64,000 nucleotides of DNA, from positions 76,593-140,592 of the forward strand of contig CAYHBB010000040.1 in assembly GCA_964354795.1 (NCBI GenBank), in the 5' to 3' direction. The position numbers and the translations under genes are program-made. A model generated the notes under the pieces. The model did no database searches. It worked only from the letters and a program-made list of their open reading frames with translations, and was not told where the DNA came from. Each line of letters begins with the position of its first letter. Position 1 is the stretch's first letter. Of the stretch, positions 6,001 to 60,000 are shown one piece after another. This stretch comes from an uncultured Planctomycetales bacterium. Its GTDB lineage: Bacteria > Omnitrophota > Gorgyraeia > Gygaellales > Profunditerraquicolaceae.

Positions 6001-9000
6001 CTCTGTTTCAAGCTTGCGAATAACCACTAATTTCGCGGTATCCTCATCTACAGCTAAGTCCAGGCGCCGGGTATCTAACCGTCCGAAAGTACCGAGGATA
6101 AGGTATCTTTTATTTTCCTCCCCAAAGCTAAGCACTAACTCTTCGCATGGTTCTGGGGCCAGAACAATCCCTACCGGCCTTTCCCTGTTGACCGCTATGC
6201 GCATTAGTTCCGCGATCATCCTGTTCCTGCGGGACCTGTCCTCAAAGAAGAACCTAAACAGGTCCTCCGTGAACGCATCAGGCCTGTTTTTCATCCAGAA
6301 GAACAGCTCATCAAAACTCTCCCATTTCAGATCTTCCACTTCCCAAGAGCCGGGATTAGCCTTATCAAGCCTGGCCATTTCCTCGGCGATCCTATCCGCG
6401 TTCCCCTGTAGCTCATAATGTATCTGTGCCAGCGTTTCCGCCCTTCCTTTTATCCTGGACATTTCTTCTTCGGTCATGGGCAGGATAAAAAACGCCCTTC
6501 TTTCCTTATTGGAATCAGTTTCTGAATCATAAATAAATTCCCCGGGGACTCCCACCGGAATAAGCCTCTGCTTTAATCTTTCCTTAAATGTATCTGTCAA
6601 CTCCTCTTGGTCATATATATGCATCTGCTTTGTGACTTTATTGACAACTGAATCCAAATAACTAAAACCCGCCTCCAGATGCCCGCCGAATATTGTCCAT
6701 AAGTGGGGGTATTTCTTGAATCCTGCGCGCTGCTGCAGGATAAGGCCAAAATCCGGGGTTACCAGGGCGACATTTGCGGTCCTGTGCCAAAGGCCGGCGG
6801 CTTCAGCGATATTCTTATCTGCCTGGCCGATTACCTTTTCTTGGCCGGTAGTTGAGTTAGGGTCCAAAATATCGATTATTCTTCCGCTAGGATATAGAAA
6901 CGCAGGGTCCTCCTGCGGCAGGCGCAGCCTTCTTACAATTTCTTCGATCTTTTCTGCTTCAACGCCCAAGGATTTAAGATTTTCTCTTACTTGATCCAAC
7001 GCGCAGGCGCCAAGAAGGGCCTCTTTGCTTTTTTGCGCTTCCTCCCTTTCGCCGTACAGCTCTTCGTAATGGTTCATGACGCCGTTCATGATGCCGGAGA
7101 TCTGCTCCATCGTAGTATCGAACGGCATCTCGCATGTTAACCCGAGGAGAAAACGGTCGCGGTGCGCAAAGCGATCCATAATGGAGGATACTTCAGCCGT
7201 CAGCTCGGCAGGATCTTTCGCGGGAGTTATCTGTGAAGCCATGATGTTACCGATAAGATAATTTCCGGAAGCGGTAAGGACTTCGTACGCCTTTTCGAGA
7301 TCGACCTCCTCGTCGATGCTGTAGGCGTCGACGTTAAGGCCGGTCATGTTCGACAAAAACGGCGTCGAATCGCCGCAACCGTGGAAAATGACACCGATGC
7401 CCTTCGCCTTCGCCGCGGCGGCTACGGCGTTCACACGCCGCGTGATGCAATCGTCGTAATACGACGGCGTCATGATGGCGGTCGAAGGCTCAAGGATGAC
7501 GATAGCGTCCGCGCCGGCCGCGGCATACGCCTCGGCCTCCTGAGCAGAGACCTTTACGCAATAATCGAGGAGCGCCCCGAATGTCTCGGGATCGTCAAGC
7601 ATCGCCATGGCGGCATCCGCTTCGCCCACCAGGCGCGCGGCGAGAGTGAACGGCCCGATCACGTAGCCGACCTTAGCGACCTTGTTGCCGTATTCCACGC
7701 TGAGCGCGGCCATGGCGTTTATGAATACGCCGGTGCGGCCGTCCCTGTCGATCATCGGAAGTTTCAGTTTCGCGATATTCTCCTTCGTCAGAGTAAACGC
7801 CGGCCCAAATAACCTGCCTTCCTGGTCGATATGTTTCGGCCCGAAAACGGACCGTACCGGAAGCGCGCCGCTCTCTTTATTCGCCTGATAAACGGCCTCC
7901 GGCCATGATGAAAGATCCATCATCGTAAATACTACGTCGAGCCTGAGAGAATCCTGGACGAACCGTATAACCTCAGCCTGCTTTGACGGATCGGTGGCAA
8001 GATCCTTTACCGAATAGTCTTTACGCTCGTGTTCGTTAAAAAATTTCACTCCGCCGAAACTTATAAGCGGCATCCACATGGCTCTATTGCGCATATCGTC
8101 AAAGGTGATCCTTGCGGCTTCGGGCGCCGGAGCCGCTTCGCCTTTATCGACCCTGCCCCCGTCCAACGTCTCGCGCACCACCGCCCCCAGCATGCAGGCG
8201 CCAAGGATTAGCGGCAGGCTGTTCGGCGCGACAAACGCCGCCAACGCGCCCAGCGCCACAAACTCAAGCAACGCAATCATGCCTTGGCCAGACGCAGGGG
8301 ACACCCTTTCGATTGGCTTGATGGGTGTCCCTTGATTGGGTTCATGGGTGTCCCCATCTTGACAGAAGGAAGAACGCAGGACATACACAAAGGTCTCTTC
8401 TTGGATAAATACAGGCGCTCCCTCGCCCATATCATTCCATTCGCGGGACTTGACTTGGCGCTTATACGGCCCAAACTTAAAATAAGAATGATTTTCCCTG
8501 CCGGAAAACTCCTTTATTTTACTTTCGATTACGCGCGAAGCCTCAACTGAACAATGATCATCCGGGAATACTGAATGCCGGAAAATAACCCTTGCCTGCG
8601 CGACGAGATACTCCTGGACATTCGCAAAGAAACATTCAACATGTTCCTTATATACATATCTGTACCCGCCGTCAACAGACCTATCCCAACCGTCGACTGG
8701 AGAAGGAGTAAAGACAATAAGGTTAAATCTCCTTCCTTCCAGCCCCTGGAATAGATCTCCGCAGACAAACTCAAGCCTGCCCGGATTTGCGTTATTGTAA
8801 CCTAAGCTTTCGGCATTGGCCCGGGCGCAATCGACCGCCGCCTCTTTTACATCTGTAAATGTCACATGGCCGGCTCCCCGGCTAAGCATGATCAATCCTA
8901 ATATGCCTGAACCCGTGCCCAGATCAAGGCAGCGCTGGCCCGAGATGTCCCTGCCTAAGCGCTTTGCGATCACCCCTGTCAGCATGCCGCTGGGGGTGTA

Positions 9001-12000
9001 GACATCTCCCCCTGAAATTACGTACCCATCAAGTTCGGCTACATAGACACTCTCCCTCTGACGATAACTATACCTGCTTTTCAATGGTACCGGAAAATCC
9101 TTAGGCCTGGCGGAAGGCTTATTTCTTTTTATTCTGATCTTCTGGAAACTTCCTTCTTTCGACCATCGACGGGCGAGAGATTCCGGGACAAAAACATCTT
9201 CAGAATCTGAGAGGCTGCAGCACAATAAAAGCAGAGCTAATGCAAGAAAACTTAAATTGCCTGCGGAGACCACTGGCAAAGCTAAAAAATGTGCCAGCGC
9301 TCCGAGAGCCACCAGACCCGTTAGAAATACCAAAACGCTTACCTTGCTGACCAAAATTTCTAACGGGGCCAGCCCAAGGAGAGCAATCAGGATTGCCCCG
9401 AGCTTAGCCGGGGGGCTTTGGCCGGAAGATGAAACCCGGCCCTGTCTTTCCTGCATTGCCTTCTGCATTGCTTCGGCTAAAAACCTACAGGAATCCTCCC
9501 AGATGACACCTTTATTTATGTATAGGACAATTACCCCTTCTTTTCCTTTTAGTCTTTCCTGAACAATCTCTTTTGAACCATCGGTCCTCAAAATAACAAA
9601 AGTATCGGGCTTTATAGTTTTAATTTCCGACGCAAGCTGATCCCCATCCATTGTACACATATGCAAATCAGTAATAGCTATATCAAAGGGGCCTTGTCCG
9701 CTTTTGAATATTTCTATTGCCTCCTCTGCGCTATGTGCCGAGACAATGATGAATGCTGGATCGATCTTTCTTAATTGCCTGACCAGCAATTCTAAATCTT
9801 CTTCAGCATGTTCTATGACTAAAATTTTAATTGGAATATTTATATGTTGTGCGGATTGAATAGTTGCGGCGATAAAGAGGAGGCCGAGGCCAAGCGCCGC
9901 AATTGGTGGGCCGTGGTGCATGAATGCGCCGGCGATGGCAAGCTTAACCGCAGCCCAATGTGGCGCGATGACAAAAGCCGTCAGCGCGCCAAAGGCCATC
10001 AGCCCAAGAAGCGCGATCAGGCCCTGGCCACTGCGTGATCTATTTATCGAAGCACTGCCGGCCTTTCTTTCCACATACTCATCCACCGCTTTTAAGAATG
10101 CCCTGTTTTTCTTTGATTCAAGATAATAAAATGTATAGGCGTGCAATGGTCCCGCGGCGGAATCCATAATCTCTTTTTTCTTTAACCCAAACTTGGTCAA
10201 TTTATCAAAGAAACCTACTGCTGACCAAAGTTTGTCTTCGCAGGCTTCCGCGTGAATGGCGCCGTTGCCTATCTTCTGGCTTAAGGCTGCCGCAGCCTGC
10301 ACAAGCCTTGTGCCTACATAAGACAGCCCATTTTTGTTACCGGATGACCTTTGATGTTGCGGCTTGACGTCAACGGAACCGATAGCAAGCGCGTTATCCC
10401 TGTCGGGATACTCATAGTAATCCAGCACCTCCCTGTCAAATTTAAGGATCCCGGCCACTTTCTCCTTAGCGGTCAATACCAGCTCTTCCGATTCAAGATT
10501 AAGGAATCCGCGTATGATACAGGGCACTTTATTTCCGGCATCATCAATGACAAAAGTATCCTGCCTGAACCTGAAAAGCCCCCTGCGCAAAGCGCTAAGC
10601 GGATCGCTTATTGCTTCAAGTTTCAATCCTGCAGGCATCATGAGGGACAATTCTTTTTCCGCCTCGCTGGCAGAAGTAAAGTGCCTAGAAGGTATACCGC
10701 AGGATTCTGCGTTTACGACAAAATCCTGCCTGTCATCAAAATAAAGCATTTGCGAAGGCTGCACATAAAATTCCTGCTCGGTAAGCAGTAAGAATTTACG
10801 GAATATCTGCGCCCCGTCTCCCTTTCTAATACCCATCTCATAGGAGGCGTAAATACGGTCTGCCGCGCTTAACACTTCATATTTCCGCTTCAAATATGCA
10901 AGATGCATATGATTGGTATCGCTTAGGAAAGCCACTTTGATTCCGCAAGCCTTGAGCTTTTTTATCAGGTCAGCCGTATCCTGCCTTAGCTCGTATGAGC
11001 CGTTCCAGATACGCTTAAACGTCGCAAAATCAACACCCTCCAATTGAAGCTCTTCGGACATCTGCGCTACGAACTTACTTGTCGAGACCTCTCCTCTTTC
11101 GTAGCTGTGGTAGACGCCTGAATCCCTTAAAATAGCCGTTACCTCTTCTACTGTCTTATTGGTAAAGCCTTCTTTTACGAATCTCTCAGCTACCCTTTTA
11201 AAATCAAAATAGACAACAACGTTTCCAATATCAAAGACTACAAACCTTAACCTATCTGTGGATTTCTTAGAAACTGAAGAGGAAGTGTGCGTGGAAGACA
11301 CCGCTGCGGCAAGGAACGGGAGGAAAGCTATCGAAGCCAGTGGCCCGGCAATGGCAGGATGGCTCGCAAGACCAATGATGGCCGCCAGCAAGCCCAACCC
11401 TGCGAAACCAAAAAGTATAAAACACGCTAAATTATGATCAAACCAACCATGCGATCTTCCATTGGAAGAAGTGCGTTCGAGGATCTTCTGCTGATAGTGC
11501 TTTATCCAATAAAAAGCGTTATTAAGCCTCTTCTCCTGCTTTTTGGGATCCAACGCTTCTTTTAAAAAATCCACCCCGTCTTTACTTATATCAGATTTTT
11601 CTGACGCCTTAATAATAGTGTCCCTGTACTTGATGAAGGCCTGCAAGACCAGAATCTGTGTTTGTGAAGCCCTGATCTCATCCTCCTCGAATCTTAACGC
11701 CCCATACTTGATCTCATTAAGCATGTGGCCGTAAGCCTCATGGACAAAATCAGCCAGCATCACCGACGGATCATTTAAAACATTTTCATTAAGAATGATC
11801 ATATAGCTGTTTGAATTCGTTCTTTTGCTGAATATCTCAATATGTAACCCTGCAGGAGCTCGCCCTTCAAATCCCTGCGGGATATACCCTTTGCTGAATT
11901 TATAAAGCTGGACCATTTGCTCATCCGAGGCCCTGCATATACGCAGCCTATCGGTTTTCCAAAGCTCCAACACCAAGGTCAAATCAGCTTCCCCGGAGAA

Positions 12001-15000
12001 AGCGCCAACCATAGCCATCGCGACCTTGATCAGATCCAGTTTCTCTTCTTCGATCGCCTGAGCGGATACTTTTTCCAACAACTTTAATTCTTCCAGCTTA
12101 GCATCCTTAGGGCTCAATATTCTTCTGCCAAAATCATCCTTCATACCAAGCCCATTGACAGAGAGCTTAACAACCAATTTTACTCCAAGCAATGCTGCGA
12201 CAAGCGCCAAAACAGAAGCGATTACCGTTACTTTAGGTTTTCTGAAGAAAGCGAACACGCGGCTTCGGTCGGCGATTTTTGCCGCATTGATCAACCGCCC
12301 TGCTTCCTGATGGGGGCTGGGCCGGTCTTTTAAGGAATGCTCTATGACTTCGTGGATTAAGTCTTCTTTTGCTTCTTGGGTTTCTTTCTGGAAAGAACTC
12401 AGGCTTTCTTCGGTAACGATCAGGGTGATTTTTCCGTCAATGCTGATGATGACTGCGCCAAAATCCTTATCTATCCCTATTTCCCGATGCCTGACTACCG
12501 CGATACGATCAATACTTTGGACTACGGGCCCGGCGCGGATATCTTTAGCTTGAGCAAGTATTTTGCCTATCCCCTCCTGCTGCCCGGTTAAATACGCATT
12601 CACCCAAGGCATATCAACTTTGATTATTTTATTCTGCCCGAAGACTTTCTCAATTCTTTTTAGATCCTTACGTTTTAAGGCTCCAGTTTTACCGCGATTA
12701 TTTTCATCCTCTCCGGGCAATTCAGCGTCGAAAACTGTTTCCGCCTGGTTTTTCCAGAGCTTCGCTGTTTCCCCATTATGTCTCACCATTATAATCTTCC
12801 AATCAGCCCTAAAGGGATTCCAGTAATTCTGTCTTAAGTTTCCCTGAAGGATATGCGGGTACTTTCTCTTTATCCGTTCCCAGGTTGAAACATAAAACTC
12901 ATCAATGCCCATAGATCGGGCTACCTTCATGACATGCCTTATGGCAGCGTTGTTCCACACCCGGTAAGGATTCTCTTTAAGTTTTATCTGCCGCACGCCT
13001 CTGCTGGGATGCACTTCTTCAATAAAAAGAGCGGGCCTGCCGTCGCAGTAAAGATCTATTATTCCCACCCTCAGCCTTCCAAAAGAGCCATCCAGAGGAA
13101 GATAGGCATCGTACTCCGTAGGCGGGAATTCGACCAGGGCAGAAAGCTCAGGATGTCCGTCGATAAAACCTTCTTGCGGGAATATATCTGCAAACGGCAA
13201 TATCCGGTAATCAAAATCTGATTCTGTTAAATCACAGCGCGCAGGTATCATAAGGTTGCTGCCATCGCAAAACTTATATTCCCATTGGAAATCAGGATCT
13301 ACCTTTATCCTCTCAAAGAGCTCACCCGTTAATCTGTCTTTTTCTATTTGAGTCAATCCTTTTTTATCTTCCTCCGTTGCCACTCCGATGGTGCAGGCAC
13401 TAAGCATTAACGCCGCCGGCAGATAACAGGAAATAGCAGAACCAATCCCCGTGAAAACGAGCGCGGAAAAACCAAAGAAACCAAAGAGTACGAACATTAT
13501 TGGATACTGGTAGTAATAATTATAAGGCTCGAGGGTATCAATAATAATATCGGGATTACGCGGCCCATTGGTTTCCTTTGTGTACATATATTTATTCACG
13601 TGCCTGAATCGCTGCATTATCTGCCACCATTCCGGAAAACGTCCGCGCGCCCTGACCTTAAGCCGGCCCCTCCTTACTTTCTCATCCGTAACTATCACTT
13701 CGGCAAATACGTCGAGAAAACCGTTATCCTGCGGTATCCTGTTGACCCCTTCCACTATAAACACATCTACATTTGAGTTATCCTTGCATAAACCAGCGAA
13801 TGTCATCTCTGCCCATGATTCCAGAGGGGTCCTTTTTTGTTCTTTGAAGGCAGTTTTTTTGTTCATTCCGTTTGATTTCAACCAATCAAGCAGTGTATTT
13901 CTTATTAGGGTCTTACCGCTTCCGGGCTTGCCCTTGATCAGGACAACCACCGGCCTCTTGCGGCCCTTTGCCAGCTCCTCTTGAATGCGCTGCTTTAAGA
14001 CAACCAAACCCTGTCTTAAGCCAAATGCATTAGGTGAAGACAGGTAATCGGACCGGGCCATGCCAAGCAAAAACGGCGCGGCAATAGACACTGAAGCGAA
14101 TAAATTGAACCAGTGGTTTTGGGCCGCTTCCCATAAATCAAAATCAAAATTAGAAATTGATATGATCTGAGCCAGAAATGCCAAATACCAAAGCACAGCA
14201 GCGCCAAATATACCCCAGAATACCCACCGTCCAAATAGACTGAATATCTTTTTGAAATCAATATGCCAACAGCTGGGCCTATCCATTGACTCGGTTGCCT
14301 TAAAGACTTCTATTCTTAACTCCTGTGGTAGCTGAGTATAGATAGAATCATCGAGGATAGCTGCCTTTGCCCAATGTGTGATCGCTGTTTTTTCATTACC
14401 AAGAAAATAATGGATGTAGCCGAGATTTCCATGCGCCGCAGCGATATTTGGGTTACTAACCAGGACATCCTTGAAAAAGGGAATGGCTTCGTGATACCTT
14501 TCTTCTTCGCAGTATTTTAACCCCAGGTCAAATAATTCTTTTATTGTGAGCTTGGAATGCCGCAGGGTATATCTTTTTTCGCGGTTTTGACTAAGTTGAA
14601 CGCACATCCCTCCCAAGACAAAAAACGTAATAGTGGCGAGAACGCTTGTGCCGATGCCTGCCAGCGCAAACTTAATCGCGGCCCAATGCGGCGCGATAAA
14701 AAACGTTATCAGCGCGCCAATCGCCACCAGCCCAAATAGCGCAATCAGGCTTTGGCCGGAATTACCCTGCTCCTCAGTCGGCGGATTCAATGGATCATTG
14801 GAACGGTAGTGGTCAATAGAATAAATTTTTCTTATGATATGTGGATAGCGATTTTTATTTTGATATCCAGGAATAAATATATTATAACTTTTATCAATCC
14901 TTACTTCAGATACTCTGGCTAAAGACAAGAAAACCATTTTTACTTTTTGAATATGCGTTCGTAATTCATCAACTATCCCACGATCAAATTTCTTTAACCT

Positions 15001-18000
15001 GCCTCTAACAACATAGAGATCAATCACACATTTATACTGTCCGAATGCCTCACACAGAGAAAATGGTACTGCCAATAAAAGCCTCTTTAGGCGCGAATCA
15101 GCAGTTCCTTTAAATAGATCAATACGCTTACACAATATTTCATAAATGCAGTCGAGCTCATGACAAACCTTTTCTAACTTACTAATTGATGGCTTTTCCA
15201 TGGCGTTAGCAATCTCTTCTGCCATTTCCAAGTGAGGCCACACTTCTTCTTTAATACTTTTTGCTTCTCTACGCACTAGTTTAACAACTGTTTCTTGAGG
15301 CGTTCCCCGAGGCGCTGCCCTTTGATCTTGTGGTTGCTTCCCATTCGCAGAAACCACCACTCCCAGCGCGCAGGCGCCGAGGTTAAATATGCCAAGCCCT
15401 AATGCCGACGCATGGATCGGCCCAGTGATAAGTATCGGCGCCAAGATAAACGCCAGCACCACTAGCCCAAGAATTCCAATTAAGCTTTGTCCAGATTGGT
15501 TATTGATACATGCTGTCGCAATTGTGTCGGAAACAGTTTCCCCTTGGTTTTTCCAGAGCTTCGCTGTTTCCCCATTATGCCTCACCCTGACAATCATCCA
15601 ATCATACCTATAGGGAATCCAGTAATTTTGTCTTAAGTTTCCTTGACAAATATGTGGATATTTTTTCTTTATCCGTTCCCGGGTTGAGGCGTAAAACTCA
15701 TCAATGCCCATAGATCGGGCTACCTTCATAACATGCTTTATGGCAGCGCTGTTCCACGCCCGGTAAGGATTCTCTTTGAGTTTTATCTGCCGTACGCCTC
15801 TGCTGGGATGCACTTCTTCAATAAAAAGAGCAGGCCTGCCGTCGCAGTAAAAATCTATTATTCCCAACCTCAACCTTCCAAAAGAGCCATCCAGGGGAAG
15901 GTAGGCATCGTAATTCGTAGGCGGGAATTCGACCAGGGCAGAAAGCTCAGGATGTCCGTCGATAAAACCTTTTTGCGGGAATATATCTGCAAACGGCAAT
16001 ATCCGGTAATCAAAATCTGATTCTGTTAAATCACAACGCGCAAGTACCATAAGGTTTCTGCCATCGCAAAACTTATATCCCCATTGGAAATCAGGATTTG
16101 CTTTTATCCTCTCAAAGAGCTCGCTCAGCAACCTGTCTTTTTCTGTTTGCGACAATCCCTTTTTAGAAACACCCTTAAGACTGTTTCTTCCCGGACCCTT
16201 GTCGTCATTTAACTTACGGCAGAACTGTCCCCCATCCTGAACACACGCCGCCACCATCACTGCGCCCAGCGCTCCTGCCGGATGCATAAGGCCGGCAACC
16301 GCCAGCGCGCCCAACGCCACCAGCCCGAGGAGCAAAGGTAGGCTAAAGCCGGATTGAGAAGATGGGGAAACGTCCCCGATTTTATTTATTTTATTCAATA
16401 TTTCTCTTAACCCGCGTAAGTCTTTTTCCGCGGCATTGCTCATGGCAATAATTAAGTCAAAATGCTCACCCCTAAGCTGCTCCACCTTTCTGCTGATTAA
16501 TTTATTTATAAAGCGGCGTTTGCGCTTCAGGGTGCGCAGGCTGATTTTCTCTTTGAAGTTCTTCTGCTCGTTCATTGCAAACTGCATTGTCGCCTTTGAA
16601 CACAGGAAGCTCTTTATCTCGGGAAGGGTTAACCTGATCGATACACCCTTTTCGGTCATAACCACCCTGGAAGCCACCTCTGGCCGGTTGCGGATAAATT
16701 CTTTTAAGGCCCTGGCGACATAACCGTAGTCTGCCTCGCCAAAATACACCAGGTTCCTGATCGAGGCAAACTCTGGGTTAACCACAAGCTCCCGCAGGTG
16801 CGGCTGTTGTGCAGAACTAATGCCGATTACCTGCTGGTAGAGCTTGCGCAGGGTAAGGTGAAACTTAAATTCAAAAACCGCGTTTTCGCTTATTGCATCA
16901 AATTCTTTTACCTGGATTTTATCCCTGATTAGCACCCTGTCAATTGCCTTCAGCCTTCCGGGGCTAAGGTTCTTTAATGTGCTCTGCCTGTTTATGACAA
17001 CCTCGTATAACCCCGATATCTCGCCAGCCCATCCCAGCACGCGGTAGCGCCAACCTTCACCTGCCTGCGGCCACTTAGCCATATCCTTGACCGCTGCCCG
17101 GACAAATCCATGGATCATCTCAGCTGCCTGCCCATTGTATTCTAATAACTGCGTAACTTTCCTGCGGAAATTTGCAAACGAAAAGTCCCGGTTCACGAAG
17201 TTGCTCAATTTCTCTAAATCTTCCTCGACAGAAACGAAGCCAGGATTATTTTCTTGGGAAAGCACTGCGCCAAGAGCAAAAATGCCAAGCGCTAGTGCCG
17301 ACGGGGCATGAATCAGGCCGGCAATAAGTATTGACGCTAAGATAAACACCAGCGCCACCAGCCCGAGGAGCGCGATCAGGCTTTGGCCGGAGTCAGAGAA
17401 AATAGAACCGTCCCCTTTATTTGCAGGCAGGCTGAAGCCGGATCTGGATTTTTGGCTTTGTTCTCCTATCCTCTTGTGCAACAAGGCCTCCACGGAGGTG
17501 GAAGCGTCCCCTTTACTATATTTTTCTCTCATCGTGGCAAACTTCTTCGCTATTATTCGCCTTTTTTCTACACTATTCAACATCCGAGGACGGAATATAA
17601 GATAGGACCGAAAACCGGATAATTTAATATCAATAACCACAGGGGCCGTTTGTCCGTCTGCTAATGTTCTAACAACCACGTTAGCAGAGGATAAATCCGC
17701 GAAATTAAGTCTGCTACTCTGCATAAACTCTTCAATCCTTGCCATCTTATTCCAAAAGTCAGCGCTTTTGACCACCCCGTAATCTTCAAGGCGGGGAGAA
17801 ATACGGCCAGTGGCATCCAAAATACATTCTGTTTTTAGCGCAGTTTTTCCCCTGTATTTAGCGAATCCGTAAATTTTAGCAAAGCTATCCCGTAGATCAT
17901 AAGGGATAGACGGCGCAATACGTCTATACATTTTGTATTCATAACTGTTAAAATCCAGGATAAATAAATGCCGTAATAATGTGCGTATCCTCACTTCGGG

Positions 18001-21000
18001 CATAAGGATCTTAAAAACAAAGTTACCCTGCCTGTAAACGCGCCGGTGCGTGCCTCGAGCTACATAATCATCTTGTGCCTGCTGGCCATTCACAACGTCT
18101 CTGTGGTCGCGGTCGTCCATAAAAGCTGCTATCGTCTCTATTACAATCTGCCGTATTAATCGCAAAGACCAATTGCGAATCTCATGACTATTGACCTGCA
18201 TCGCCTCTTGTAATTCCTGAACTGTCTTAGGGCCCTTTCCGAAGCCTCTATGCGGACCAAATAAGCACAAGCCGCCCGGCCTTCTATAGGTAAAAACATC
18301 GACATAATCTGGATAATCTCTTAGGTTTTCCATCGAAAGAGGGCGCGGACCCAACAAAGACATTTCGCCTTTGATAATATTTACCACTTGAGGCAATTCA
18401 TCAAACAGGTTCTTCCGAAGGAACCATCCCAATGGTGTATGTCTTCTCTCTTCTGGTATGTTTGTATGAGTGAGGGTTCTAAATTTATAGATTCTAAAAG
18501 GGCGGCCTTTATATCCTATACGTTCCTCAGTATAAAAAACGGGGCCCTTCGATGTGAGTTTTATTAACGGTGCGATAATAATCGTTGCAATACAAAGAAC
18601 CGGCAACAACGATATCCCAACAATCATATCCATAGCCCTTAACCGCTTTACCCACCGCCGATAAGGAGTCTTCTCGTGTTCCTCGGTGCTTATTTTCCAA
18701 TTAAAACCAGAGTGCCCGGAGTTCGTTATTTGGCCAGCCGCGCTGATTCCATCGCTGTCGTTGCGGAGGTCTTCGCGGAGGGCATCTCTTGGGCCAATGT
18801 AGAACTTCCAAAGGATATATTCATCGGTCTCAACCAGAGAAAATCCTGCCTTCTTTAAGCATTTCTCTGTTTTGGCAACTTCTTCCGGGTCGCGATAAAA
18901 CTCTCTCTCATCTCTGCCGAAATAAACCGTAATTGCCCCGAGAGGACCCTTTATCAGATCGCTGTTTACACAGATGGCCATAATCAACACTAAGGCCTCT
19001 ATTCCGTAATCATGGTCCCTAAAATTAACCTTACTGAAAGGACCGCCGTGTATTGCATACCTGAACCATCTTTCCTGGGGCGGGTCAACAGGGCAGTCTA
19101 TAATCCCATGCCCTATGGCACAGGATTGGTCTGACCGTAGCGATATCAGAAAAACGTGTTGCTGTGGTAGTGCCTCTAAAGAGAATTTTCCATCCTCGCC
19201 GATCCGTTTTAAGACCCTGAAGAACGTGATTTCTATGTTTTTAAATCTGAAAACCTGGCAACTATTCTGGTCGAGGCTTTGCGGAAACATTACCCTGCCG
19301 ATTCCCGCAGGACAATTATAATCAGCCATACCTTTTATAAGCAGTTTGACGCGGCGGGCGGTTTCCTCAGCCGCCGAAATTTGTTCTTTTTCAAAACGAA
19401 CGCTTCGGATATACTCTTGACTCAACGGAATGGCATGATGGGGCACGGATGGGGAAGCGGGGACGTTTCCCCCTATTGTAACAGCTTTATTCTCATTGGG
19501 TTGCGAAGGCGAATTAAGAATTTGCTTATCGGAAGGCTGGATTGTTGCGGCTAATAGCGGGACGGCGGAAAGCGCAGCAAACGGCCCTGCGGTGGCGGGA
19601 TGACTCAGTAAACCAATAATAGCCGCCAGCACGCCCAGAGCCAAGAGGCCAACAAATAGTGTGATTAAGTTCTGGCTGGATGACCGACAGGGACTGTCCC
19701 CGCTTTTTGGGGACTGTCCCTGAATTTGTTTCCCTAAATCCTTGCGCTGCAACGTGCCCAAAGAGGGGGAAACGTCCCCTCTAATACACTCCCATTCCCC
19801 CTGTTCGAATTTGACTTTAACCGGCTCTCCCCTTACCCCGGATCTGTATACTGCTGACATTAACTTAATACCAATGCTGTGATCGGCAAGCGAGGATCTG
19901 ACTATTGCCTGCGTCAAATCTTTGCTTTCTGCCAGCACGGACAAGAACTCTTTCGCTGGCAAACTATCGTCTTCCGGCTCTACCGGCATAACCTCGATAC
20001 TCTTAGCGCTTCCTGTGACTACCGGGTTAGTTAAGAATAGAAGTTCGGCATGGCTGTCTCCTCCGATAGCTGCTTTATCCGAAATCCCGAATTTAGCGAT
20101 TCTTCTATACTGCACTGCTGCAACCGGGCCCTGATGAAGACTTAACAACTCATATTTGACCCTGAAACGGTCTTTTGAGATTATGGTTACCCCTTCATGG
20201 AGAAACTTTATACTAACCTGACATCTTTTTTCATCTCCATGTTTAAATGTGATAAGAATGTTTGCGTTGATTTCCGAAAGCCCTCTCAAGTTTTCTATAA
20301 CTCCCGGATCGATTTCGGAAAGCAGCTTTATTTGGCCGTCCCTGTGCCGGAAAACCGGAAAGGTAGTAAATGAATCCATCGGACGCCACAAATCAGCGTA
20401 AACTACCGCGCTATCAATATCCTTCGGATTAGTATGGCGGATCAACCACGGGATAATATCAAGGAAATGGTAGCCTGAATGCGAAATCTTGCCTCCGGCA
20501 GACTTATACGCCCATTGATTGCTTCCGTAAGACCCAAGACTCGCTTCATGCTCGTCTTTTGCAAATATCCAGTAACCGTCATTTGTCTCGTAATTAATGC
20601 TTGTAATCGGCACGGTTATCCCGTCGATACGGTTCGCAGAAATTCTTGCGGCTATTTTATTGAATACATCGGAGTATCTTTTCTGTGTAGCCGCCATAAA
20701 AAGCAACCCGGGCTTACTCTTGGCTATTCGCATCAGCTCTTCATAATCAGCAAATATCTGGCTAGCCCCGGCTTCGTCAATGCTGCAGCCTGATGGAGTA
20801 GTCAGAGGTTTATCCACAAGGACATGGTAACCAGCATTCAGCGCCCAGGAAACGTAGGCTTTATGCGAGACTGGATGAGTTGAAACAATCACTGCTATTC
20901 TTTCATAATCCTTTAATTTATCCTTCAGGCTTTCCTGTGTATCAAAGAACCGTTTGACTTCTTCCTCTGCAGGAACCCTTTTTCTCCATTCGTCGGGGAC

Positions 21001-24000
21001 ATATCGCTCTATCTCAGGCTGCTTTAAGCCCATACGTTGATAATATCTCTTGAGCTCCTCTTCATGCCCGCTATAAACTACTTCCTCCGCATCTCTACCC
21101 CTTGTGCCATTTTCTATTCTAAAATCAACAACAGCCAATAAGTGGCATTTTTCCCGATAACCCTCTAACGCGCGTAAATGAGCACTTAAAGCATACCTAC
21201 CGGCACCAATCAATATCACCCCAACTTTATGTTGTGGCAAGGAACAGCCGATAGAACCTTGCACTGAAGCCTCCCTGAAGGGAAGCGTGCCATCTTTATC
21301 TGCCTCATAAATATAATGCGTGTTATCGCTTATCGATGCTCTGATAGTAAAACTGGGGGGCGTTTCGGGGTTTTTGGGCTGGATGATCGCGCCGATGAGT
21401 GCCAGAGGCAGTACAATCGCAGCTGCCGGCGGCGCATGAATTAATCCTGCGATTAAAACCGGCACTAAAATATAAACGAGCACCACCAGCCCAAGAAGCG
21501 CGATCAGGCCTTGGCCGGAAGTAGGCTTCTTGTTAGGTTGAGGACTGACCAGGAAGGCCTTATAGAGCAGGGCGATCTCTTCGGCAGTGGCTTTTTCTTT
21601 CAATTTAAAATCCTTTATTGCTGCCTGAATAAGGTCAGAGGCAAAGAGGGTTTGCTCTTCTAGAGGCACCTGTTTCGCACAGGCGGCCTTTGGCTCTCTT
21701 TTAAGATAAGGCACCACTACGCCTAAGATATTATCTCGTTTATGTTTCTTCAAGCTAGGGATAAGGCAACCGAAATTACTTACTTTGGTAATGAAAAGAA
21801 GTGTATCGCAGGCAGTAAAAACCGGTGATTTCTCGGAAATGAAAGCGCTCTTGTACAGGCGGGCCCTCCAGTAGCGCGGAGATCCCGTGATAAGGTTATT
21901 CTTTGCGTGCCATTCGCGGAAAACCCTGCTGAAGACAGCCTCGTCATTAGCGTATCCTTTAACTTTATTCATATGCACATCATTGAGAAAATTCTGATAA
22001 GCCCTCATAAAACGCGAAACCAGCAAAGAATCTTCGGTTATAGAAATGATCAAATCTAATTGCCCTACTGCTCTAGCTGCCTTTTTCTCTGTAGTGGCGG
22101 CAGCAATCAATATGGAGGCGCGCTTAATCGCGTTAGTAAGGCCTGTAAATTCGACTTCTCTGAAGAACGGCCAGCGCAGTAATCTCTCCAACTCTGCTTT
22201 TGCGTTTTCCCGCCCTCCCCCTTGGAACAGTGACTTAATATCTTTCGCCCTGTCGATCACCCTGTTAAAACGCCTTTCTCCACACTGGCGCAGTTCAAGA
22301 CGCAATGATTCAAGATTTGAAAACATACCTTCTATGGCATGCAGGCGAAGCCCGATAAAAGGCAATGCTGCGCTCAGGCTTTCCGCCGCCAGCTTGAAAT
22401 ATCCTTTCTCAAGCAACTGCGCTGCAGTCTCCAGATCACTACGGCACTCTTTCTTAGATTCTACCTTTACGCCCTTAAGCTCATCGGCGAGAAAAGCGAT
22501 TTCCCTTACCAACTCCATAGCAGTATCCCTGGCTCCGGGATAATTGACAAGCTCTGATGATTTCCTTGAAATATCTTCAATCCTGTAAGAGAAATCTTTC
22601 ATCTTCCGGTAATCGCGGGCCAAAGAAGCAAAGATCTTATCCAGTATCCTGTGCCAGCGGTAAAGCGTAAATGTCTGCGGGCGCTGCCTGACCAAAGTCG
22701 TTCCCTCTTCGCTGAGAAGCCTGCCCATCAATATGGTGAATTTTCCGTTCTTTTTTCCTTCTTTTTCTTCGACAATCTTCTCTTTTACTTCCTGACAGTT
22801 TGCGCGTATGCGCTCATCCAGAATTTCTTTTCTTTGCTCTGCGGTTTTTCTGGATAAAGCGCTTAAGATCGCGCAGGCTGCCGGCTCATTGCCTTTTTCG
22901 ATCAGGCCCACTATTTCATCCGCTCTCTCTATACCGCTGTTTCGGATAACAATTTTAAGCTGGGCAATATTTCTCGCCACCTCTTCAGCTCCCGCCCTAC
23001 GCGTTCCTAAGCGTAAAGTGCGATGGTGCAGATCCTTGATTCTTTGGTGTCCGGCTTTTAACCTGGCCTCATGCCCATCTAAAGTCATGCCTAAAAATCC
23101 GCAGCAAGCAATGGCCCCGATTATAAACACTGGCTTAGCCAGTAAAATAGCGGTAACCCCTATCAGAATGAAGATTAATGGCAAATATTTGAACAATGAA
23201 ATAAAGTTATACAAACTGGAGTCCAGAGAAAGGCAGGCTTGTTTAAGAAAATTATATTGCTCTCCTATATCTTTTGCGCTAGCCACATCCGTTTCGGTGC
23301 AATTCCAAGTACTACCTTGATCAGGATGGCGGAAAGGAAAGTTAGTCTTTCCGTCAAAACCACTGACCAGCCTTATTGAGCCATCATTAAAAACCTTTGT
23401 CCCCGGATAAGGAATGGCTATATTATAGGACGCGCACGTGCCGAGTGCGCAAAGCATGATTAATAACGGCGGAGCACAAATAGCATGGCCCATGAACCCG
23501 GCAAGCCACAAAGGCAGGGTAACGGCGCATAAGAGAAATAGCCCCAGGGGCATAAGGTATTCGCTAAGAATGATGCCTGAAGCGGGATCACTGTTTTCGC
23601 TTCCTGCTCTTTCTTCGATTTTGTCGATGTTATCTTGGATCTCCTGCGCTGCCTCGCGCAATAGCTTTACGGCTTTTCCTAAAACAAATATATTCCTCTT
23701 ACGGTTTTCTCCAAGAAAAACACAGTTATAGAAATAACGCCCCAGGGTACTCCACAGGATAGGGTCGTTTATTGTGCCTTTATTTTCCGGCGGGTTTACG
23801 CGGCCCAGATATTTCTCCGCATTTAGCATTTCAAGAATGGCTAAATTCCCTGCAAGTTTTTTGCTTTCCTCAACAAATGTTTTCTTCGGCAAGATCAATT
23901 CTCCCTTGCCATCCTTGATGTTTTGCTCCAGTCCTCCCAGTAATACCGTCAGCGAGGAATTTAGATCGTGCTGGATCCAACTGTTAAAACCTATTGAAAA

Positions 24001-27000
24001 TACCATCTCCTGCCTGGATGTGTATGTTAATGAAGAATCTAAAAAAGTAACGAACTCCAATATTTCTTTAAAATATTGCACCCATTCTAAAGCGCTGACA
24101 AGGTGATCGTCTTTTGTTGTCAATGGCCTTTGCGGCCAGTCAATTTTCTCAGCCTGCTCTTCAAATATATTATAATGATCGTCATTCAGCTTTTCCCTTC
24201 GTTTTTTCAACTCCCCGAAGAACTGAGCCGTCATCTGCCGCACATACATGACTGAATCTGTCAACGCCGGGGCCAAAGGAGAATATTTCAGGGTTGCGCC
24301 TGCCAAATAGCCTATTACTTTCAAGAAAGCTTCTTTTTCAGAAATAAAATTGCCGATCATCTTATCCAGAAGATGAGCGTTCTCAAGGTCATTTTTGCTT
24401 ACAGCAATAAGCGACTGGTACGCGCGCATCACCCTGCCGAGCCTAGCCTGGTGATTCGATAATGCCTCGCGCTGCTGTGTGTCGATTTTATTTTCTTCTT
24501 TGGCGCGCAGAAAAAAATAATTGAACCAAGAAAGGTGATTAGGGAAGGCGTCGTTGAAATATAACTGTATCGCCTTAAATAAAAACTGCAGTGAATCTTC
24601 GGGTAAACCTTCCTTATTGTCTTCGGCCGCGCGCTCAAAAACAGTCTTTTTGTCATGGGTGGGTAAATTTCTTAGTATTTCAATAAATTCCGGACTATGG
24701 AATTCATCTTGCAGCTCTTTGGCCCCGATCCAGGAGTTTTCGTCATTTACCGCAGAAAGCGGGGTGGTTCCATCTGTAGACACATGGTAGATCTTTGTAT
24801 GAAAAGCGTCCTGCAAATCGTACAGTAAATTAAGTCTTGCGTCCTGTATATACAACGGCCCCAATTCCGTGTGCAGAAAATCCGAACGATATGCCGGGGC
24901 TTTCAAGACAATATCTCTTTTCGGCCAATTGCGGAATTCCCGGCAGAGAATAAAGGGCGTGCGCAAAGCGGTATCGATCAGTTTGTCTGCTGCCTGATCT
25001 TGGCCACGGCCCCTGAGATACTGATCAAAACAATTGCCTTTTAAGTCCTCCGCCGGGTCTGTTAAAGCAAACCTTTGCGCCTGATGCTTCAGCTGCCGGC
25101 AAATAACCTTGATCAAGACAAGCGCAAGAGAAGTTGCTCCCGCTGCCGCAGCAAAGACACTCAGGCTAGACATCGCTCCCACCCAGTCTTCAGGATCAGC
25201 TTTTACCTCTAATATAGGTAAGGCGCCTTCGGCTTTTCCCTGGATAGCGTGATACTGGTTCTCTGCAGGCTTAATAGCATAAATACCCTCTGCCGCAGCC
25301 TTAAGCTTAGCCTTTGAACCTAACACTCTTTGGACAACTGACAAGCGCAGAAGATTGTCTTTGATGCATTCACCTTGAGCATTCTTATTAAGAATCGATC
25401 TTAAGAATTTATTCCTTAGTTTGTATGAACTAAGGGCCATTGTCACGCAATTGAAGGAAGCCCGTAATTCATCTGTATCGTTTTCCGAGCCTTTACGGAC
25501 ATAGTAGTCGATTATGCCTTTCTCCAATGCCTCTTTTATTTGCGGCCTCTCCTCTAGGCCCCTTCCGCTTTGCAGGACAATATATGATTTGGAACCATTC
25601 TCTCTCATTGTGCGCGCAAAGGACAGTCCATCCATAAACTTCATCTCTAAATCAGTTATAATAATACCGAACTCTCCCTGGGCTTTGATAATCTCAAGCG
25701 CTTGCTTTGCGTCATTAGCGGTGATCGTCTCAGACAACCCGGAGCAAAAATAAAGCAGCCTTTTAAGTCCACTGAGTATGCTGGCTTCGTCATCTACTAA
25801 TAAAAGCCTTTTGTTCCCCGAAGAATTGATTACTGCACCTAAGCAAGCAAATACTCCAAGAAAAGCAAAAGACTTTAGAAAAGTGCTTAAGAACATGATA
25901 AGAGAAAACGCGGGGATAGAAATAAAGATGAAAGAAATAATAAACGGGCAAAGAATACCCAAAGCAACTAATATTTTAGTCAAAGCCTGCTTTCCGTTAT
26001 GCCCATTCATTTCATGAAGCGAGGAGATGATGCCGATAACCCTGCCTTTCTTATTAAGCACCTGCTGCTCAGTGATCCAAACGCTACGTACGCTTCCGTC
26101 GGCAAACTGATATTCCCGCTCAAAAGGCGGCAGAGTTTCCGGCTCTTTAAGCTTTTTAGCGACTACCGCGTGTACCTCCTCCTGGCACTTCGGCGCCACG
26201 AATTCCCAGACATAACGGCCGGCCATATCTTCGGCGCTATTTAATCCCAGGAACTTCACTTCAGCCTCGTTCACCCAGACAATCTCTCCATTCTCATTGA
26301 TCATGTGGGAAGGCACAGGTGAAGAGAGAAATTTAGCGTATTCTTCGGGACGATAAAGATTTTTAAGTTTGCGCACTGCTTCGCTCAGGAAACGCGGGGC
26401 GATATCCTCGACTGCGCCCTGATCGACGATTACCGTGGTATCGGCGTTCTCAAGAAGCATGCTCACCGGAGTCCCGCTTTCCATAAGCGCCTGTTTTAAT
26501 ATCTTTGCCTTGCGTTTACCGAGAGCAAGGAGAAAAACCTTCTTATCCGATTTTCCGCCTAAAACTATATCATACAAGCTCATCGTATTGGCGTAAGGGT
26601 TCACTTCGATACCGGGATAGTCCTCTCTGTTGGCGCGGATGATTTCCTCGGTAAGACGCACTTTTTTGAGCCTGCCCTGCTCTCTGATATCCAGATGCGA
26701 ACCTTGTGAGTTAAGGCCGATATGCCCATCCGAACCTACGCCTACAACAATAATATCCGCTCCCCCGAAATGCTCATTAAGCTCATTCATATAGGCTTTG
26801 GGATCAGGGCCGGCTCCGATATAATGAATATTTTTTCTTGATTCAGGCGTAGTGAAAACCAGCGAAAATAGTTCTTTCTCAAGCGTGTGCGCGTAGGAAT
26901 AAAGGCTGTCCACATCAAGGCCCTGGTATTCAGCTAACTGAAAAGCGTTCAATCCCTGCCAATAGATGCAGTATTCCTGGTCAGCAAGCGCCCGTAAGAA

Positions 27001-57000: not shown

Positions 57001-60000
57001 CTCCTTGAGTGAACCGGTCAATTCCTCAACAGATACCCTTGTCTCTTGAGGAAGGTGTAAAACGTTACCAGGATGCTGCTCAAAAAAGACGATCATATCT
57101 GCGATATTTGCCAAGGCTTTGGCGGCATTCTGCACAAAAATAGGGTTTCCTCCGCGAGAAGCATTGACCACTATTTCAACTTGATTTGCCAACAAAGGCA
57201 TGATTTCTTTAATTGATCTAATGCCCCCGCTTATCTGGCTGTTAATGTTGCCTACTACATCCTCGTTTATCTGGCCGCTCATTTCCTTAAGGCAAGGGTC
57301 TCTTACTTTCTCAAACAGCTCCGCGATCTTCTCGTCTGTTTCCATGACATCAAAATCTGGATTATTTACCGCCATCCCCAATAGGCCTAACATAAGTAGC
57401 GATACAGGCTGGACAAAGACAGCTTGCCCTTCGGCAAGACTCAGGGCAAGCATGGCTCCGACGGCCAACATAAACACCCACTTTGAAAGCGCTTTCCTGA
57501 GATTTAAAAATAAAAGGCTACGGTAAGATCCGGGAGGAAGCGAATAGCAGCTCTCCTCCCAAGTCTTATTGGTAGATAAGATCGCGCTTATCAATAAGTA
57601 TTGACTTGACCTTGGCCATGAGGATATCCTTGAGTTCCTGGCTGGCCCGTAGCCAGACGCCGTCTGCGGTTTTCCCCCTGACTGTTCCGTCGGGCTCGAC
57701 AAGGAAACAAAATTCAGACCACCAGAGAGGATGTTTAACAAATACGAAGAGATTTTTTGTATCAGGCAAGATGCGGATGATTTCCAATTCCTGTAAATTG
57801 ACCATTTTGTTACCTCCTTATTATTTTTGGCCGCTGCCAAGGATTTAAGTAAAGCCCCGTTGCAAAACGACAAATCTTCCCCACCAGCCACGGAAGGTAG
57901 AAGATTGCCTTTTTCAATTCTTTGCAACGGAGCATGACAAGTCTTTAGCGCCCTGATTAATAAAAATCCTAAACCCGGTGTAAATAATCCGTAGAATCCT
58001 GAATCGCTCCTTAATGCGGCCTTGGCCTGGCCCGGAGCAGAAAACAGGATGAAACATCCGATAAATGTAAGGTTCGAGATGGCCTGGCCGGTCAATAACC
58101 AACCGAAGAGAATAAAGCCTAAAGCGCATGCCCTGCTTATCCCCAATGTTATCCGCGTAGCCATATAACTGCCGAGATGCAGCTTAGAAACCAAAACGGC
58201 TCTCAGTATCCTTCCCCCGTCTGTAGGAAATACAGGAAGAAGGTTCAGGGCCGCTAAAATCAAATTAATGTAGGCAATGCTGCTTAAGATCTGTGCCCAG
58301 CTGCTGACCCCTATAGTAAAGGTAAGGCCCCCGGGCACAAGCCAGAAACTGAGCGCGAACAATAACGGCGCCAGTAAGATATTCACCAATGGACCGGCAA
58401 ACGCGATGCTCATCTGCTCCCTGGGAGTGCGGCCAACCCCCTGCATGCGGGCGAATCCGCCGATGATCGTCAAGAGGACATCGTTGGTCCTGATATGGTA
58501 TTTGCGCGCCTTCAAGATATGCCCAAACTCATGCAAAGTCACTAAGCTGAATATGGCAGCGTAAAGAACCAGTCCCGGCAATCCCCATGCGTTAATCGCA
58601 AGGAACAGGCCCAGATAAAGGCTCCAGTGCGCTCTTACGGGGACTCCTTTTACGGTAAAGAGGGTGATATTCAATCTATCAAGAACACCATTCAAATTTC
58701 CATTCAGGGAAGCTGACAGCAGCGGAATCGGTAATCCTAGACAGGCAAAAGCAGCGCCCGAACAATCGCTCCTTAAACCTTCCAATAAATTCTTAAAGGC
58801 GCTTTCTTCGATATTACTCTTACCCATATCGTGCTCTATGTCTTCAGCAGTGGCCCGTTCATATTTTTCCCTGTTATCAGCCAGAGCAAACCCGTCCAGC
58901 TCATGGGTCCCCAGGACAGGGGAAAGCCTGTATTCCTGCGTCCTTATCACCGTAGGCCAGATATAAATGAAATCCCCCAGCATGGAAACTGAATGTTCAA
59001 TATTTTGAGATTGAAGCGCGGATACGCACTTCATAAAGGCGGATTTGAATCTTTCCGTGCCATCTGCCTTCATGCAGATCACAGATAAAGGATAATCAGT
59101 GAGTACATATACCTCGGCTCCCTGAGCCTCGAAGGCGGCTTTTCTGGCAGCGCTTTCCACGGGCAGAGAACAATCATAATAATTTGCCTGTATGTGCAGA
59201 TGGAAGACAGAAGCTAATTTCCCGGGATTTATGCCCAATTTTAATCTTGGGGAGCGGGATAATCTCCTTATTGCCAGCATTGTCTCAAGGGCCGCCTCGC
59301 TGACCTGCTGCGGAAATTCTTTTTCGGGCTCAGGAACGATTACAATGTGGTACTTAAAGGAAGCATTCTTATTGATATCTACAGCGATATGCCTTGCGTC
59401 TATCACTAAATCCAGGAGCCTCCTTACAGGGCCCTCTTCCTTCAGGAATTTATTAAAATTCTTATTGGGATCGAACTTTAAAACATCAATGTTAGAGCTG
59501 CTCTTTCCGGTATTGCGCGCCTTCTTCGCATTATCGTAATCTGCGCGTCCGGAATTGAACCTCATCATCCACCTGCCTACTTCCCTGGTCTCGGTAATGT
59601 AAGGGTCATACGCGAATACCCCGGGCTGATGCGCCCTTATATCCCAAAGCTCCTGAACCGTAGTATCAAAATCTAATACTCCCTCCACAATCAGCCTTCC
59701 CAGTATCCAGCTCGCCTGCCCTTGAGAAATTTCATCGATAGCCCTGATAAATTCCTTCTGCCAATCGCTCACTCTTTGCTCGGATTCACGAAAGACCATA
59801 TCCTGGTAAAGATTCAGGATTATCTGGGTCTTTAATTCCTCGCTCAGGACGCTGTTCTTTCTCAAGACTTCTTTGACCTGCGCTGCCTTGACTGCTTCTG
59901 AGGCCTCGCTAGGTTGCGCGCGATTGTCATTGAAACCATCAGGATTATTATTGTGCCACTCCCAGGCGCTTCTGATTATGTCTTTAATCCCCATTGTCGG

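Follow-up and report, generated by a model that had tools for sequence, protein, structure and literature searches.

An intact site-2 protease core and recurring hydrophobic linkers in a giant multi-enzyme open reading frame of the Omnitrophota type

We analysed a 64,000-nucleotide (nt) stretch of contig CAYHBB010000040.1 (assembly GCA_964354795.1, positions 76,593 to 140,592), hereafter the window, which encodes an internal piece of a giant multi-enzyme protein with an embedded M50 peptidase, or site-2 protease (S2P), core. The reading that we favour, with roughly even confidence, is that the protein forms a membrane-tethered string of cytoplasmic enzymes, with hydrophobic hairpins as anchors or junction cassettes and M50 as one conserved, probably active module. 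We favour it because the chain carries more than 30 mostly cytoplasm-type domain families, double-length hydrophobic stretches flank such domains, and a modelled linker consists of a 28-residue and a 16-residue helix; because hairpins recur at four of five junctions shared with a relative, P0046, although the flanking modules are only 29-41% identical; and because the linker motif reappears in a second relative (P0044), M50 occurs in a small fusion protein (P0109) and no separate translation units were found.

In such a string the cargo (sugar epimerases, phosphoglucomutase, helicase, kinase, response regulators, CheB, URO-D, methyltransferase and HAD) would be tethered like beads along the inner membrane face by conserved helix-break-helix linkers that dip into or cross the inner membrane and return the chain to the cytoplasmic side. 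M50 would fit without a change of side, having six helices, cytoplasmic ends and no CBS domain, which it would have lost. It would most likely be one more captured membrane-resident enzyme module, acting on putative substrates, and the hairpins would be primarily anchors and junction cassettes, not obligatory cleavage sites.

A giant multi-enzyme reading frame

The giant protein announced in a preliminary description of this DNA is real, because the minus-strand frame read from nt 63999 is open over the whole window: six-frame translation gave no stop in its 21,333 codons, against 623-1565 stops in each of the remaining five frames, and the open reading frame (ORF) leaves the window at both ends, for which reason a program listing ORFs missed it. 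G+C content (0.44-0.53) and GC skew (negative) are both uniform along the window. Scanning the chain against Pfam as 25 overlapping tiles of 1000 amino acids (aa) identified more than 30 distinct families, nearly all of them cytoplasm-type enzyme or signalling domains. Residues 200-1264 hold a deaminase fragment and three NAD-dependent epimerase/dehydratase domains. Next along the chain come Peptidase_M50, PGM/PMM domains I-III, HD, a weak glycogen-phosphorylase-like match and ELFV dehydrogenase, and further along Sigma70_r4, Transglut_core, an AAA_11/AAA_12 (Upf1-like) helicase, protein-kinase-like and glucosamine-6-phosphate isomerase-like domains and PAS. The later chain contains three response-regulator receivers, GFO_IDH_MocA, Bac_transf, YrbL, TPR, HAD and a class I methyltransferase; the remaining domains are URO-D, NUDIX, CheB methylesterase and LysM.

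Omnitrophota commonly carry giant ORFs (Seymour et al. 2023, PMC10066038). West-Roberts et al. 2023 (bioRxiv 10.1101/2023.11.21.568195) describe Omnitrophota proteins that reach 85,804 aa and have many transmembrane (TM) regions, and Nielsen & Lui 2026 (bioRxiv 10.64898/2026.06.07.730766) a 'multi-enzyme metabolic cluster' with PGM/PMM, receivers, HAD, HD, methyltransferases and NUDIX, as well as a dominant 'TM-only' topology with cytoplasmic domains. At 21,333 aa or more and over 30 families, the window protein lies well within the definition of Omnitrophota giants as chains of at least 10,000 aa with many Pfam families and no dominating repeat. It resembles the multi-enzyme or Archaeovorin-type giants of Omnitrophota in its stop-free ORF of tens of kilobases and its many enzyme families in one chain, and Omnitrophota giants at large in its many TM helices at low, even density; its nearest relatives are fragments from Candidatus Omnitrophota metagenome-assembled genomes (MAGs). 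The protein belongs to this described multi-enzyme, membrane-anchored class, to which its embedded S2P core and linker families add new details. Unlike Omnitrophota giants as described in the preprints, it has an M50/S2P module and linker families: M50, site-2 protease and polyprotein go unmentioned in the main texts of both and in one supplementary file, as do recurring linker families in the portions accessible. A SecA_DEAD-like domain and an N-terminal C39/S8 peptidase have been reported for most full-length Omnitrophota giants; the Pfam scan found no C39, S8 or SecA_DEAD domain in the window, outside which both gene ends lie.

Internal translation starts, considered as a source of separate products instead of proteolysis, are unsupported, as Shine-Dalgarno sequences with an ATG occur on the minus strand only once in frame, against 16 and 7 times in the other two frames. 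The in-frame depletion may reflect selection against internal initiation or an effect of codon composition. A search for mRNA-level processing elements found no match to Rfam families or tRNA genes in the window.

A map of domains and hydropathy along the C-terminal half revealed that each cytoplasm-type domain is flanked by double-length hydrophobic stretches, uncharged and 36-60 aa long on both sides. With a slash for each hairpin, the order of beads is / receiver / GFO / Bac_transf + YrbL / bead / bead / TPR / HAD / receiver / methyltransferase / URO-D + NUDIX / CheB + receiver /. We read the stretches as hairpins because single spans would place alternate beads, such as receivers and URO-D, outside the cell; through such hairpins, all enzyme beads would be kept on the cytoplasmic side. 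LysM, set between two single-span segments, is the sole clear periplasm-type, wall-binding excursion of the otherwise cytoplasm-type chain.

The embedded site-2 protease core

The M50 module matches Pfam PF02163 with 76.9 bits (cut-off 27.2, E 1.9e-21) and aligns over its full length with residues 4-209 of the M. jannaschii S2P structure 3B4R (E 2.5e-24, 32% identity); its alignment to SpoIVFB is weaker. The hallmarks of the family are in place (Table 1). In an alignment of the module with stand-alone homologues, the zinc-binding and catalytic residues of HEFGH (H48, E49 and H52 in alignment numbering) are invariant, as are GG, GP, two Asn, P-x-DGG and R, and the third zinc ligand, Asp1927, aligns with D148 in the FPMDGG motif of 3B4R. 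Further pairs between the module and 3B4R are AGPLVN with AGPLVS and NLLPVFPTDGGRIL with NLIPAFPMDGGRIL. An AlphaFold2 model built from 41 homologues (predicted local distance difference test score (pLDDT) 92.4, predicted template-modelling score (pTM) 0.87) has six helices and a beta-hairpin with strands at residues 63-69 and 72-77. Foldseek with this model returned 3B4R_A first (E 1e-12, TM-score 0.79/0.83), followed by the SpoIVFB:pro-sigmaK complexes 8VJM/8VJL (TM-score 0.70). The module thus shares with M. jannaschii S2P and SpoIVFB the six-TM core, HExxH in TM2, the Asp in TM4 and the re-entrant GG beta-hairpin. It is on this re-entrant loop that SpoIVFB holds its substrate by strand addition (PMC11486902).

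The module lacks accessory domains. Pfam detected no PDZ domain at the module and no CBS domain (PF00571) after TM6, where the aligned stand-alone homologues run on into CBS. Unlike CBS-group S2Ps, which are proteins of 220-390 aa, it has no C-terminal CBS domain or recognisable interdomain linker, and it lies at least 1,770 residues from the N terminus and at least 19,300 from the C terminus of its chain. An RseP-type identity was ruled out by the score against TIGR00054 (25.4 bits, cut-off 147.6) and by the missing PDZ domain. Alignment to 3B4R and the positive residues after HEFGH suggest that the core begins and ends on the cytoplasmic side, and it would therefore be insertable into a cytoplasmic chain without switching sides. 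Such a core, free of CBS and PDZ domains and embedded in a giant enzyme chain of Omnitrophota, is a new architecture within a known kind of system.

We conclude that the module is a complete, probably active intramembrane metalloprotease core of the SpoIVFB/MjS2P type. The preliminary description had named an M50 module with HEFGH and LDG motifs and had asked whether catalytic residues would be lost on careful alignment. The module and its HEFGH are confirmed by the scores above; of LDG, the Asp is kept, the actual sequence being TDG within NLLPVFPTDGG, with Thr for Leu. The alignment, now made, left every catalytic and structural motif intact. The proposal that M50 cuts its own chain survives this check, from which it gains no support.

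Hydrophobic linkers between enzyme domains

Hydropathy analysis counted 76 hydrophobic 19-residue segments in the chain and 30 hydrophobic stretches free of charged residues. These stretches range from 21 to 65 aa and mostly measure 33-49; in several, a His-Pro, Pro or Gly break lies in the middle. A hidden Markov model (HMM) seeded with eight obvious copies and iterated to convergence gathered about 15 members of one family, type A; at least 10 hydrophobic double stretches exist beyond these. The type-A consensus starts with S-G-Q-(S/G)-L-I-A-L-L-G-L-V-A-L-G-A-L, continues through 0-25 variable residues, and ends with A-G-L-(I/V)-H-(A)-P, then L-L-G-A-(V/I)-(I)-Q. A second family, type B, comprises four copies of what looks like a short hydrophobic piece, Pro and one long helix, followed by Lys/Arg. 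When 26 hydrophobic double stretches were counted as hairpins, their spacing was 71-3250 aa overall and about 120-970 aa in the C-terminal half; residues 1-1745 and 3190-6438 hold several enzymes and no hairpin.

One type-A linker was modelled by AlphaFold as a 28-residue helix, an Ala-Pro break and a 16-residue helix (pLDDT 77). Inspection gave helix 2 a length of 11-15 residues in most copies, which suggests a tight or partly re-entrant hairpin instead of two full spans. The turns are 2-7 residues long (e.g. HAPS, HPAG, HPATAGP), less than an extracytoplasmic loop that could accommodate a site-1 cut.

The conserved linkers of the preliminary description exist, but its 'dozens' overstated them, with about 15 of type A and four of type B. 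The GLIHAPSA/GLVHPA stretch that it singled out as their conserved part, and as a possible cleavage site, does occur, yet in only four type-A linkers; what is widely shared is the N-terminal half, SGQ-(S/G)LIALLGLVALGAL. Cleavage at this stretch is unlikely, given that few linkers have it and that the turn would lie at the far side of the membrane, the zinc site of S2Ps being near the cytoplasmic face.

At the DNA level the linkers are 60-90% identical, with the same codon at 55-80% of identical residues. This similarity, with one clear segmental duplication, indicates that the family likeness comes partly from duplication. The duplication concerns a hairpin-adjacent module (nt 12727-13026 and 15526-15825, 89% DNA identity over 300 nt); the duplicated segments, residues 15946-16172 and 16879-17105, are 78-87% identical in protein and show that the chain grows by internal duplication. 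Several type-A hairpins are preceded, 5-40 residues upstream, by an (N/K)GDGS motif conserved in three lineages (window residue 15529, nt ~17410; P0044 residue 900; P0046 residues 1917, 2414, 3503 and 4510), possibly an additional junction signal. A profile of 18 linkers gave no significant match in 5.8 billion proteins because it was too short and too hydrophobic.

Relatives in Omnitrophota

A 1001-aa query from the linker-rich region matched only partial proteins of Candidatus Omnitrophota MAGs. Among them, P0042 and P0043 each match the window over one module, at 62% and 47% identity. P0044, which comprises the last 1711 aa of a giant ORF extending beyond its contig, shares a 63%-identical module and carries a window-type linker, ...ILIAGLIHAPPA..., with the motif IAGLIHAPPA. 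The giant-specific modules have close relatives, at 47-63% identity, only among proteins of Candidatus Omnitrophota MAGs, which points indirectly to an Omnitrophota origin of the window.

An exhaustive HMMER search with the M50 region against 1.84 billion representatives yielded 14,178 matches, headed by two Omnitrophota giant fragments, P0045 and P0046 (E 3e-45, 51% identity), with the third match at 2.7e-31. P0045 (3073 aa) bears the NCBI name 'site-2 protease family protein, partial [Candidatus Omnitrophota bacterium]', and P0046 (4519 aa) is a single ORF that fills its whole 13.6-kb contig; neither has CBS, and HEFAH and FPLDGG are retained in each. The modules shared by P0046 and the window (Table 1) are collinear, P0046 being far more compact, with about 9,600 extra window residues between M50 and the next shared module. 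M50 is the best conserved of them (50% identity against 29-41% for the others), and in four of five cases a hairpin lies at the same junction in both proteins. Modules are also shared mosaically between the window and P0042, P0043, P0044 and P0046, and the blocks of homology often stop at hairpins; the linkers may therefore serve as cassettes, for recombination or at junctions, through which modules are gained and lost in frame.

A more distant case, P0109, is a complete 767-aa Omnitrophota ORF of the order NDK-hairpin-TPR-M50-hairpin, with HELGH and FPLDGG intact, that adjoins other fused-enzyme ORFs. Its architecture shows that M50 is found in small fusion proteins too, like any cargo enzyme, and the recurrence of M50 with intact catalytic residues in other Omnitrophota fusion proteins (P0045/P0046, P0109) is new. 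An Omnitrophota contig (GCA_015233705.1 JADFXE010000034.1, 731-11184; masked N runs) holds a same-strand row of fusion ORFs of ~770-1,160 aa as called, joining NDK-TPR-M50, an MbnB/TglH-like protein with guanylate kinase, and cytidylate kinase with DUF218; the row resembles a multi-enzyme giant that is 'split' or at an early stage.

Other searches with the M50 module returned ordinary proteins. A word-index search found stand-alone M50(+CBS) proteins only, the giant-embedded relatives requiring the exhaustive HMMER search; among GTDB representative genomes the sole match was from Bacteroidota, at 24% identity, and a first metagenome scan gave none. When the query was a two-sequence alignment, the best 80 metagenome M50 loci were at most 42% identical, all in ordinary ORFs, and the matches listed did not include the JGI contig known for P0045. 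Across 81 M50-bearing loci examined, the median ORF was 376 aa.

Downstream of the P0044 giant ORF (GCA_026387455.1 JAPLLR010000048.1, 5176-15162) lie two PilZ genes and then a sugar ABC transporter (substrate-binding protein and two permeases), a major facilitator superfamily transporter and GH2, which match the reported association of giant genes with carbohydrate import.

Anchored string or processed chain

Several points weigh against a membrane-tethered string. Its topology derives from hydropathy only, and helix 2 of the hairpins, at 11-16 aa, is short for a full span. A protease devoid of regulatory domains sits beside dozens of Gly/Pro-rich membrane helices, and its likeliest substrates lie in its own chain; M50 as the best-conserved module shared with P0046 (50% against 29-41%) hints at a role above that of random cargo. 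Many of the enzymes are normally oligomeric, which is awkward in an uncut chain, and it is from the gene sequence that an intact protein is deduced.

These points lead to the proposal of the preliminary description, a self-processing polyprotein, which we consider unlikely. Here the embedded M50 would cut the hairpin linkers, in cis or between neighbouring chains, to leave dozens of separately anchored enzymes. Because the S2P active site is near the cytoplasmic face, the cut would likely fall close to that face, at the entry of helix 1 (SGQ-SLIALLG...) or where the short helix 2 leads into the next bead, and not at the GLIHAP turn. Encoded within the chain are an M50 core with intact catalytic machinery and fold, ungated by CBS or PDZ, and a transglutaminase-like Cys-His-Asp core. 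Three Omnitrophota lineages retain M50 with its motifs intact, and no other shared module is as well conserved; linker sequence, beyond mere hydrophobicity, is conserved within and between genomes; and the beads between hairpins of the C-terminal half are of ordinary protein size (~120-970 aa). The linkers are rich in Gly, Ala and Pro, residues that favour S2P substrates, and the two linker families occupy many of the junctions. Set against this, the case is one of co-occurrence, and a single M50 would have to serve about 26 hairpins in more than 21,000 residues. The stretches at residues 1-1745 and 3190-6438 are multi-enzyme and hairpin-free, and with so many enzyme-enzyme junctions lacking a hairpin, cleavage at hairpins could not free 'individual enzymes' there. 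The hairpin before window residue 15598 is replaced by a soluble Ser-rich/acidic linker at the same junction in P0043. Omnitrophota giants generally have a similar TM density, but the recurrent domains reported for them do not include M50, and none of the best 80 metagenome M50 loci lies in a long ORF, aside from the two Omnitrophota giant fragments.

Known systems bear on self-processing from both sides. In SREBP processing, S2P acts after a first cut in a luminal loop of ~30 aa. The window resembles the SREBP/S1P/S2P system in that the candidate substrate would be a two-helix membrane hairpin with both flanking domains cytoplasmic and the protease an M50; it differs in its turns of 2-7 residues, which on the SREBP paradigm could not provide the necessary loop cut, in having no evident site-1 protease, and in joining protease and putative substrates in one polypeptide. 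The flavivirus polyprotein is threaded through the membrane and cleaved by embedded proteases as well as by those of the host. Like such viral polyproteins, the window encodes one long product with many enzymes, a protease and membrane segments between modules; unlike them, it is a cellular gene, its protease is an intramembrane M50, many junctions have no candidate site, and the sites proposed are putative. The closest characterised relative, SpoIVFB, needs no prior site-1 cut to cleave a short hydrophobic segment on a cytoplasmic domain, and engages that segment, N-out/C-in, as a beta-strand on the re-entrant loop (PMC11486902). Helix 2 of a hairpin would have the same orientation.

Processing by other proteases, with M50 uninvolved, is a distinctly improbable alternative. 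The agents would be C39/S8 peptidases near the N termini of giants, or the transglutaminase-like core, and the sites soluble LPSVAGG(E/D)-type motifs. Double-glycine leaders have hydrophobic residues at -4 and -7. The window repeat KTCHAPLQRIEKGxLLPSVAGG(E/D) likewise has hydrophobic residues at -4 and -7 and, as far as sequence can tell, resembles a double-glycine (C39-type) processing site at -1, -2, -4 and -7. Its LPSVAGG core occurs three times in the window and once in P0045 (residue 748), and its DNA is unusually conserved: two copies are 97% identical over 64 nt, a level that no other repeat in the window approaches. Alternatively, the repeat could be a gene-conversion tract or a soluble junction cassette. 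Copy 2 reads VAGC, which was rejected as a lipobox, since it is not preceded by a hydrophobic signal region and VAGG stands in the other copies. West-Roberts et al. (bioRxiv 10.1101/2023.11.21.568195) propose that embedded C39 and S8 proteases cleave the giants into smaller products, at points not known. However, the window has no C39 or S8 domain, the N terminus lying outside it; three LPSVAGG sites are few for 21,333 aa, their match to the double-glycine consensus is partial, and cleavage at them is hypothetical.

As for the other protease-like motifs in the preliminary description, the transglutaminase-like core near 38.0-38.45 kb held up, at 30 bits against a cut-off of 23, with its predicted catalytic Cys in AICATYA, His in YHHVANI and Asp in ALVDVT. 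Its two HExxH motifs (11.73 kb and 42.83 kb) proved to be six-residue HExxGH, and were rejected as additional metalloprotease sites, having no Pfam or NCBIfam support and lying in modules dissimilar to each other. The chain contains HE...H six times, against about 0.6 HExxH expected from its composition.

Slightly less probable still is selective regulated intramembrane proteolysis, in which M50 would, on a signal, free only certain signalling beads such as the sigma-r4-like helix-turn-helix (HTH) or the response regulators. S2Ps classically release sigma factors and regulators, and the chain that carries M50 also has three receivers, PAS, CheB, a kinase-like domain and a Sigma70_r4 match (E 1e-6) ~50 aa upstream of a hydrophobic segment; however, of a sigma factor it has region 4 alone, no sigma domain is among the Pfam domains recorded for the P0046 fragment, and there is no anti-sigma-like or site-1 element. 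Pro-sigmaK is the substrate of SpoIVFB (PMC11486902). The segment in question spans residues 8425-8450 (nt 38650-38727), and its pairing with the HTH in an S2P-bearing chain is reminiscent of membrane-tethered transcription regulators.

Table 1 Features of the window and of the modules shared with P0046
Feature	Residues of the chain	Window nt	Strand	Remarks
ORF, 21,333 codons		1..63999	-	unclosed at both window ends; internal piece of giant multi-enzyme gene
M50/S2P core, six TM helices	1771-1995	58015-58689	-	PF02163, 3B4R, AlphaFold2
HEFGH	1823-1827	58519-58533	-	two zinc-binding His and catalytic Glu; aligned to 3B4R HELGH
IIGGFA	1845-1850	58450-58467	-	membrane re-entrant beta-hairpin; aligned to 3B4R PIGGVA
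NLLPVFPTDGG	1919-1929	58213-58245	-	third zinc ligand Asp1927; N-x2-P-x4-DG motif
First hairpin linker after M50 (type A)	2170-2213	57361-57492	-	HMM envelope residues 2142-2250, E 1.6e-19; within nt 57340-58720 of the preliminary description
Other type-A linkers outside the richest region		54439-54546, 44572-44682	-	
Type-A-richest region		5062..25989	-	12 of ~15 linkers, between cytoplasm-type enzyme beads
Type-A linker starts in that region	12671, 14162, 14776, 15538, 15884, 16171, 16415, 17522, 17991, 18220, 18572, 19584		-	
Type-B linker	8768-8810	37570-37698	-	family common to P0044, P0109
Other type-B copies		30805-30915, 3655-3789, 1558-1701	-	
LPSVAGG repeat, copy 1	2018-2040	57880-57948	-	soluble
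LPSVAGG repeat, copy 2	6343-6365	44905-44973	-	
LPSVAGG repeat, copy 3	6395-6408	44776-44817	-	
Sigma-70 region-4-like HTH	8326-8375	38875-39024	-	Pfam Sigma70_r4
Transglutaminase-like Cys-His-Asp core	8552-8632	38104-38346	-	
HEAYGH (HExxGH)		11725-11742	-	unannotated module
HEIIGH (HExxGH)		42823-42840	-	unannotated module
HEGTH		47323-47337	-	only true HExxH besides HEFGH; no family support
LysM domain	20311-20361	2917-3069	-	between two single-span segments
Shared with P0046 268-481 (M50)	1778-1995			50% identity
Shared with P0046 758-931	11609-11780			41% identity
Shared with P0046 1035-1919	11744-12669			31% identity
Shared with P0046 2514-2984	13653-14149			37% identity
Shared with P0046 3592-3942	18639-18970			29% identity
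Hairpins matching P0046 1259, 1939, 2436, 3524	11975, 12671, 13598, 18572			in the order given

Implications

Whether Omnitrophota giants (10,000 to 147,000 residues) exist as single chains or as cut pieces is explicitly an open question in the literature. The window pairs a compact, confidently modelled intramembrane protease with short, conserved candidate linkers, which makes the question of processing approachable by experiment without culture. If cleavage takes place, the protein would be the first polyprotein of a cell whose maturation is due to an intramembrane protease, and if M50 performs the maturation, the CBS-group S2P core would gain a defined natural substrate class. If there is no cleavage, the linkers would represent a new type of repeated membrane anchor or junction cassette that strings cytoplasmic enzymes along the membrane. 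Either way, the linker families offer practical markers for splitting giants into units for structure prediction.

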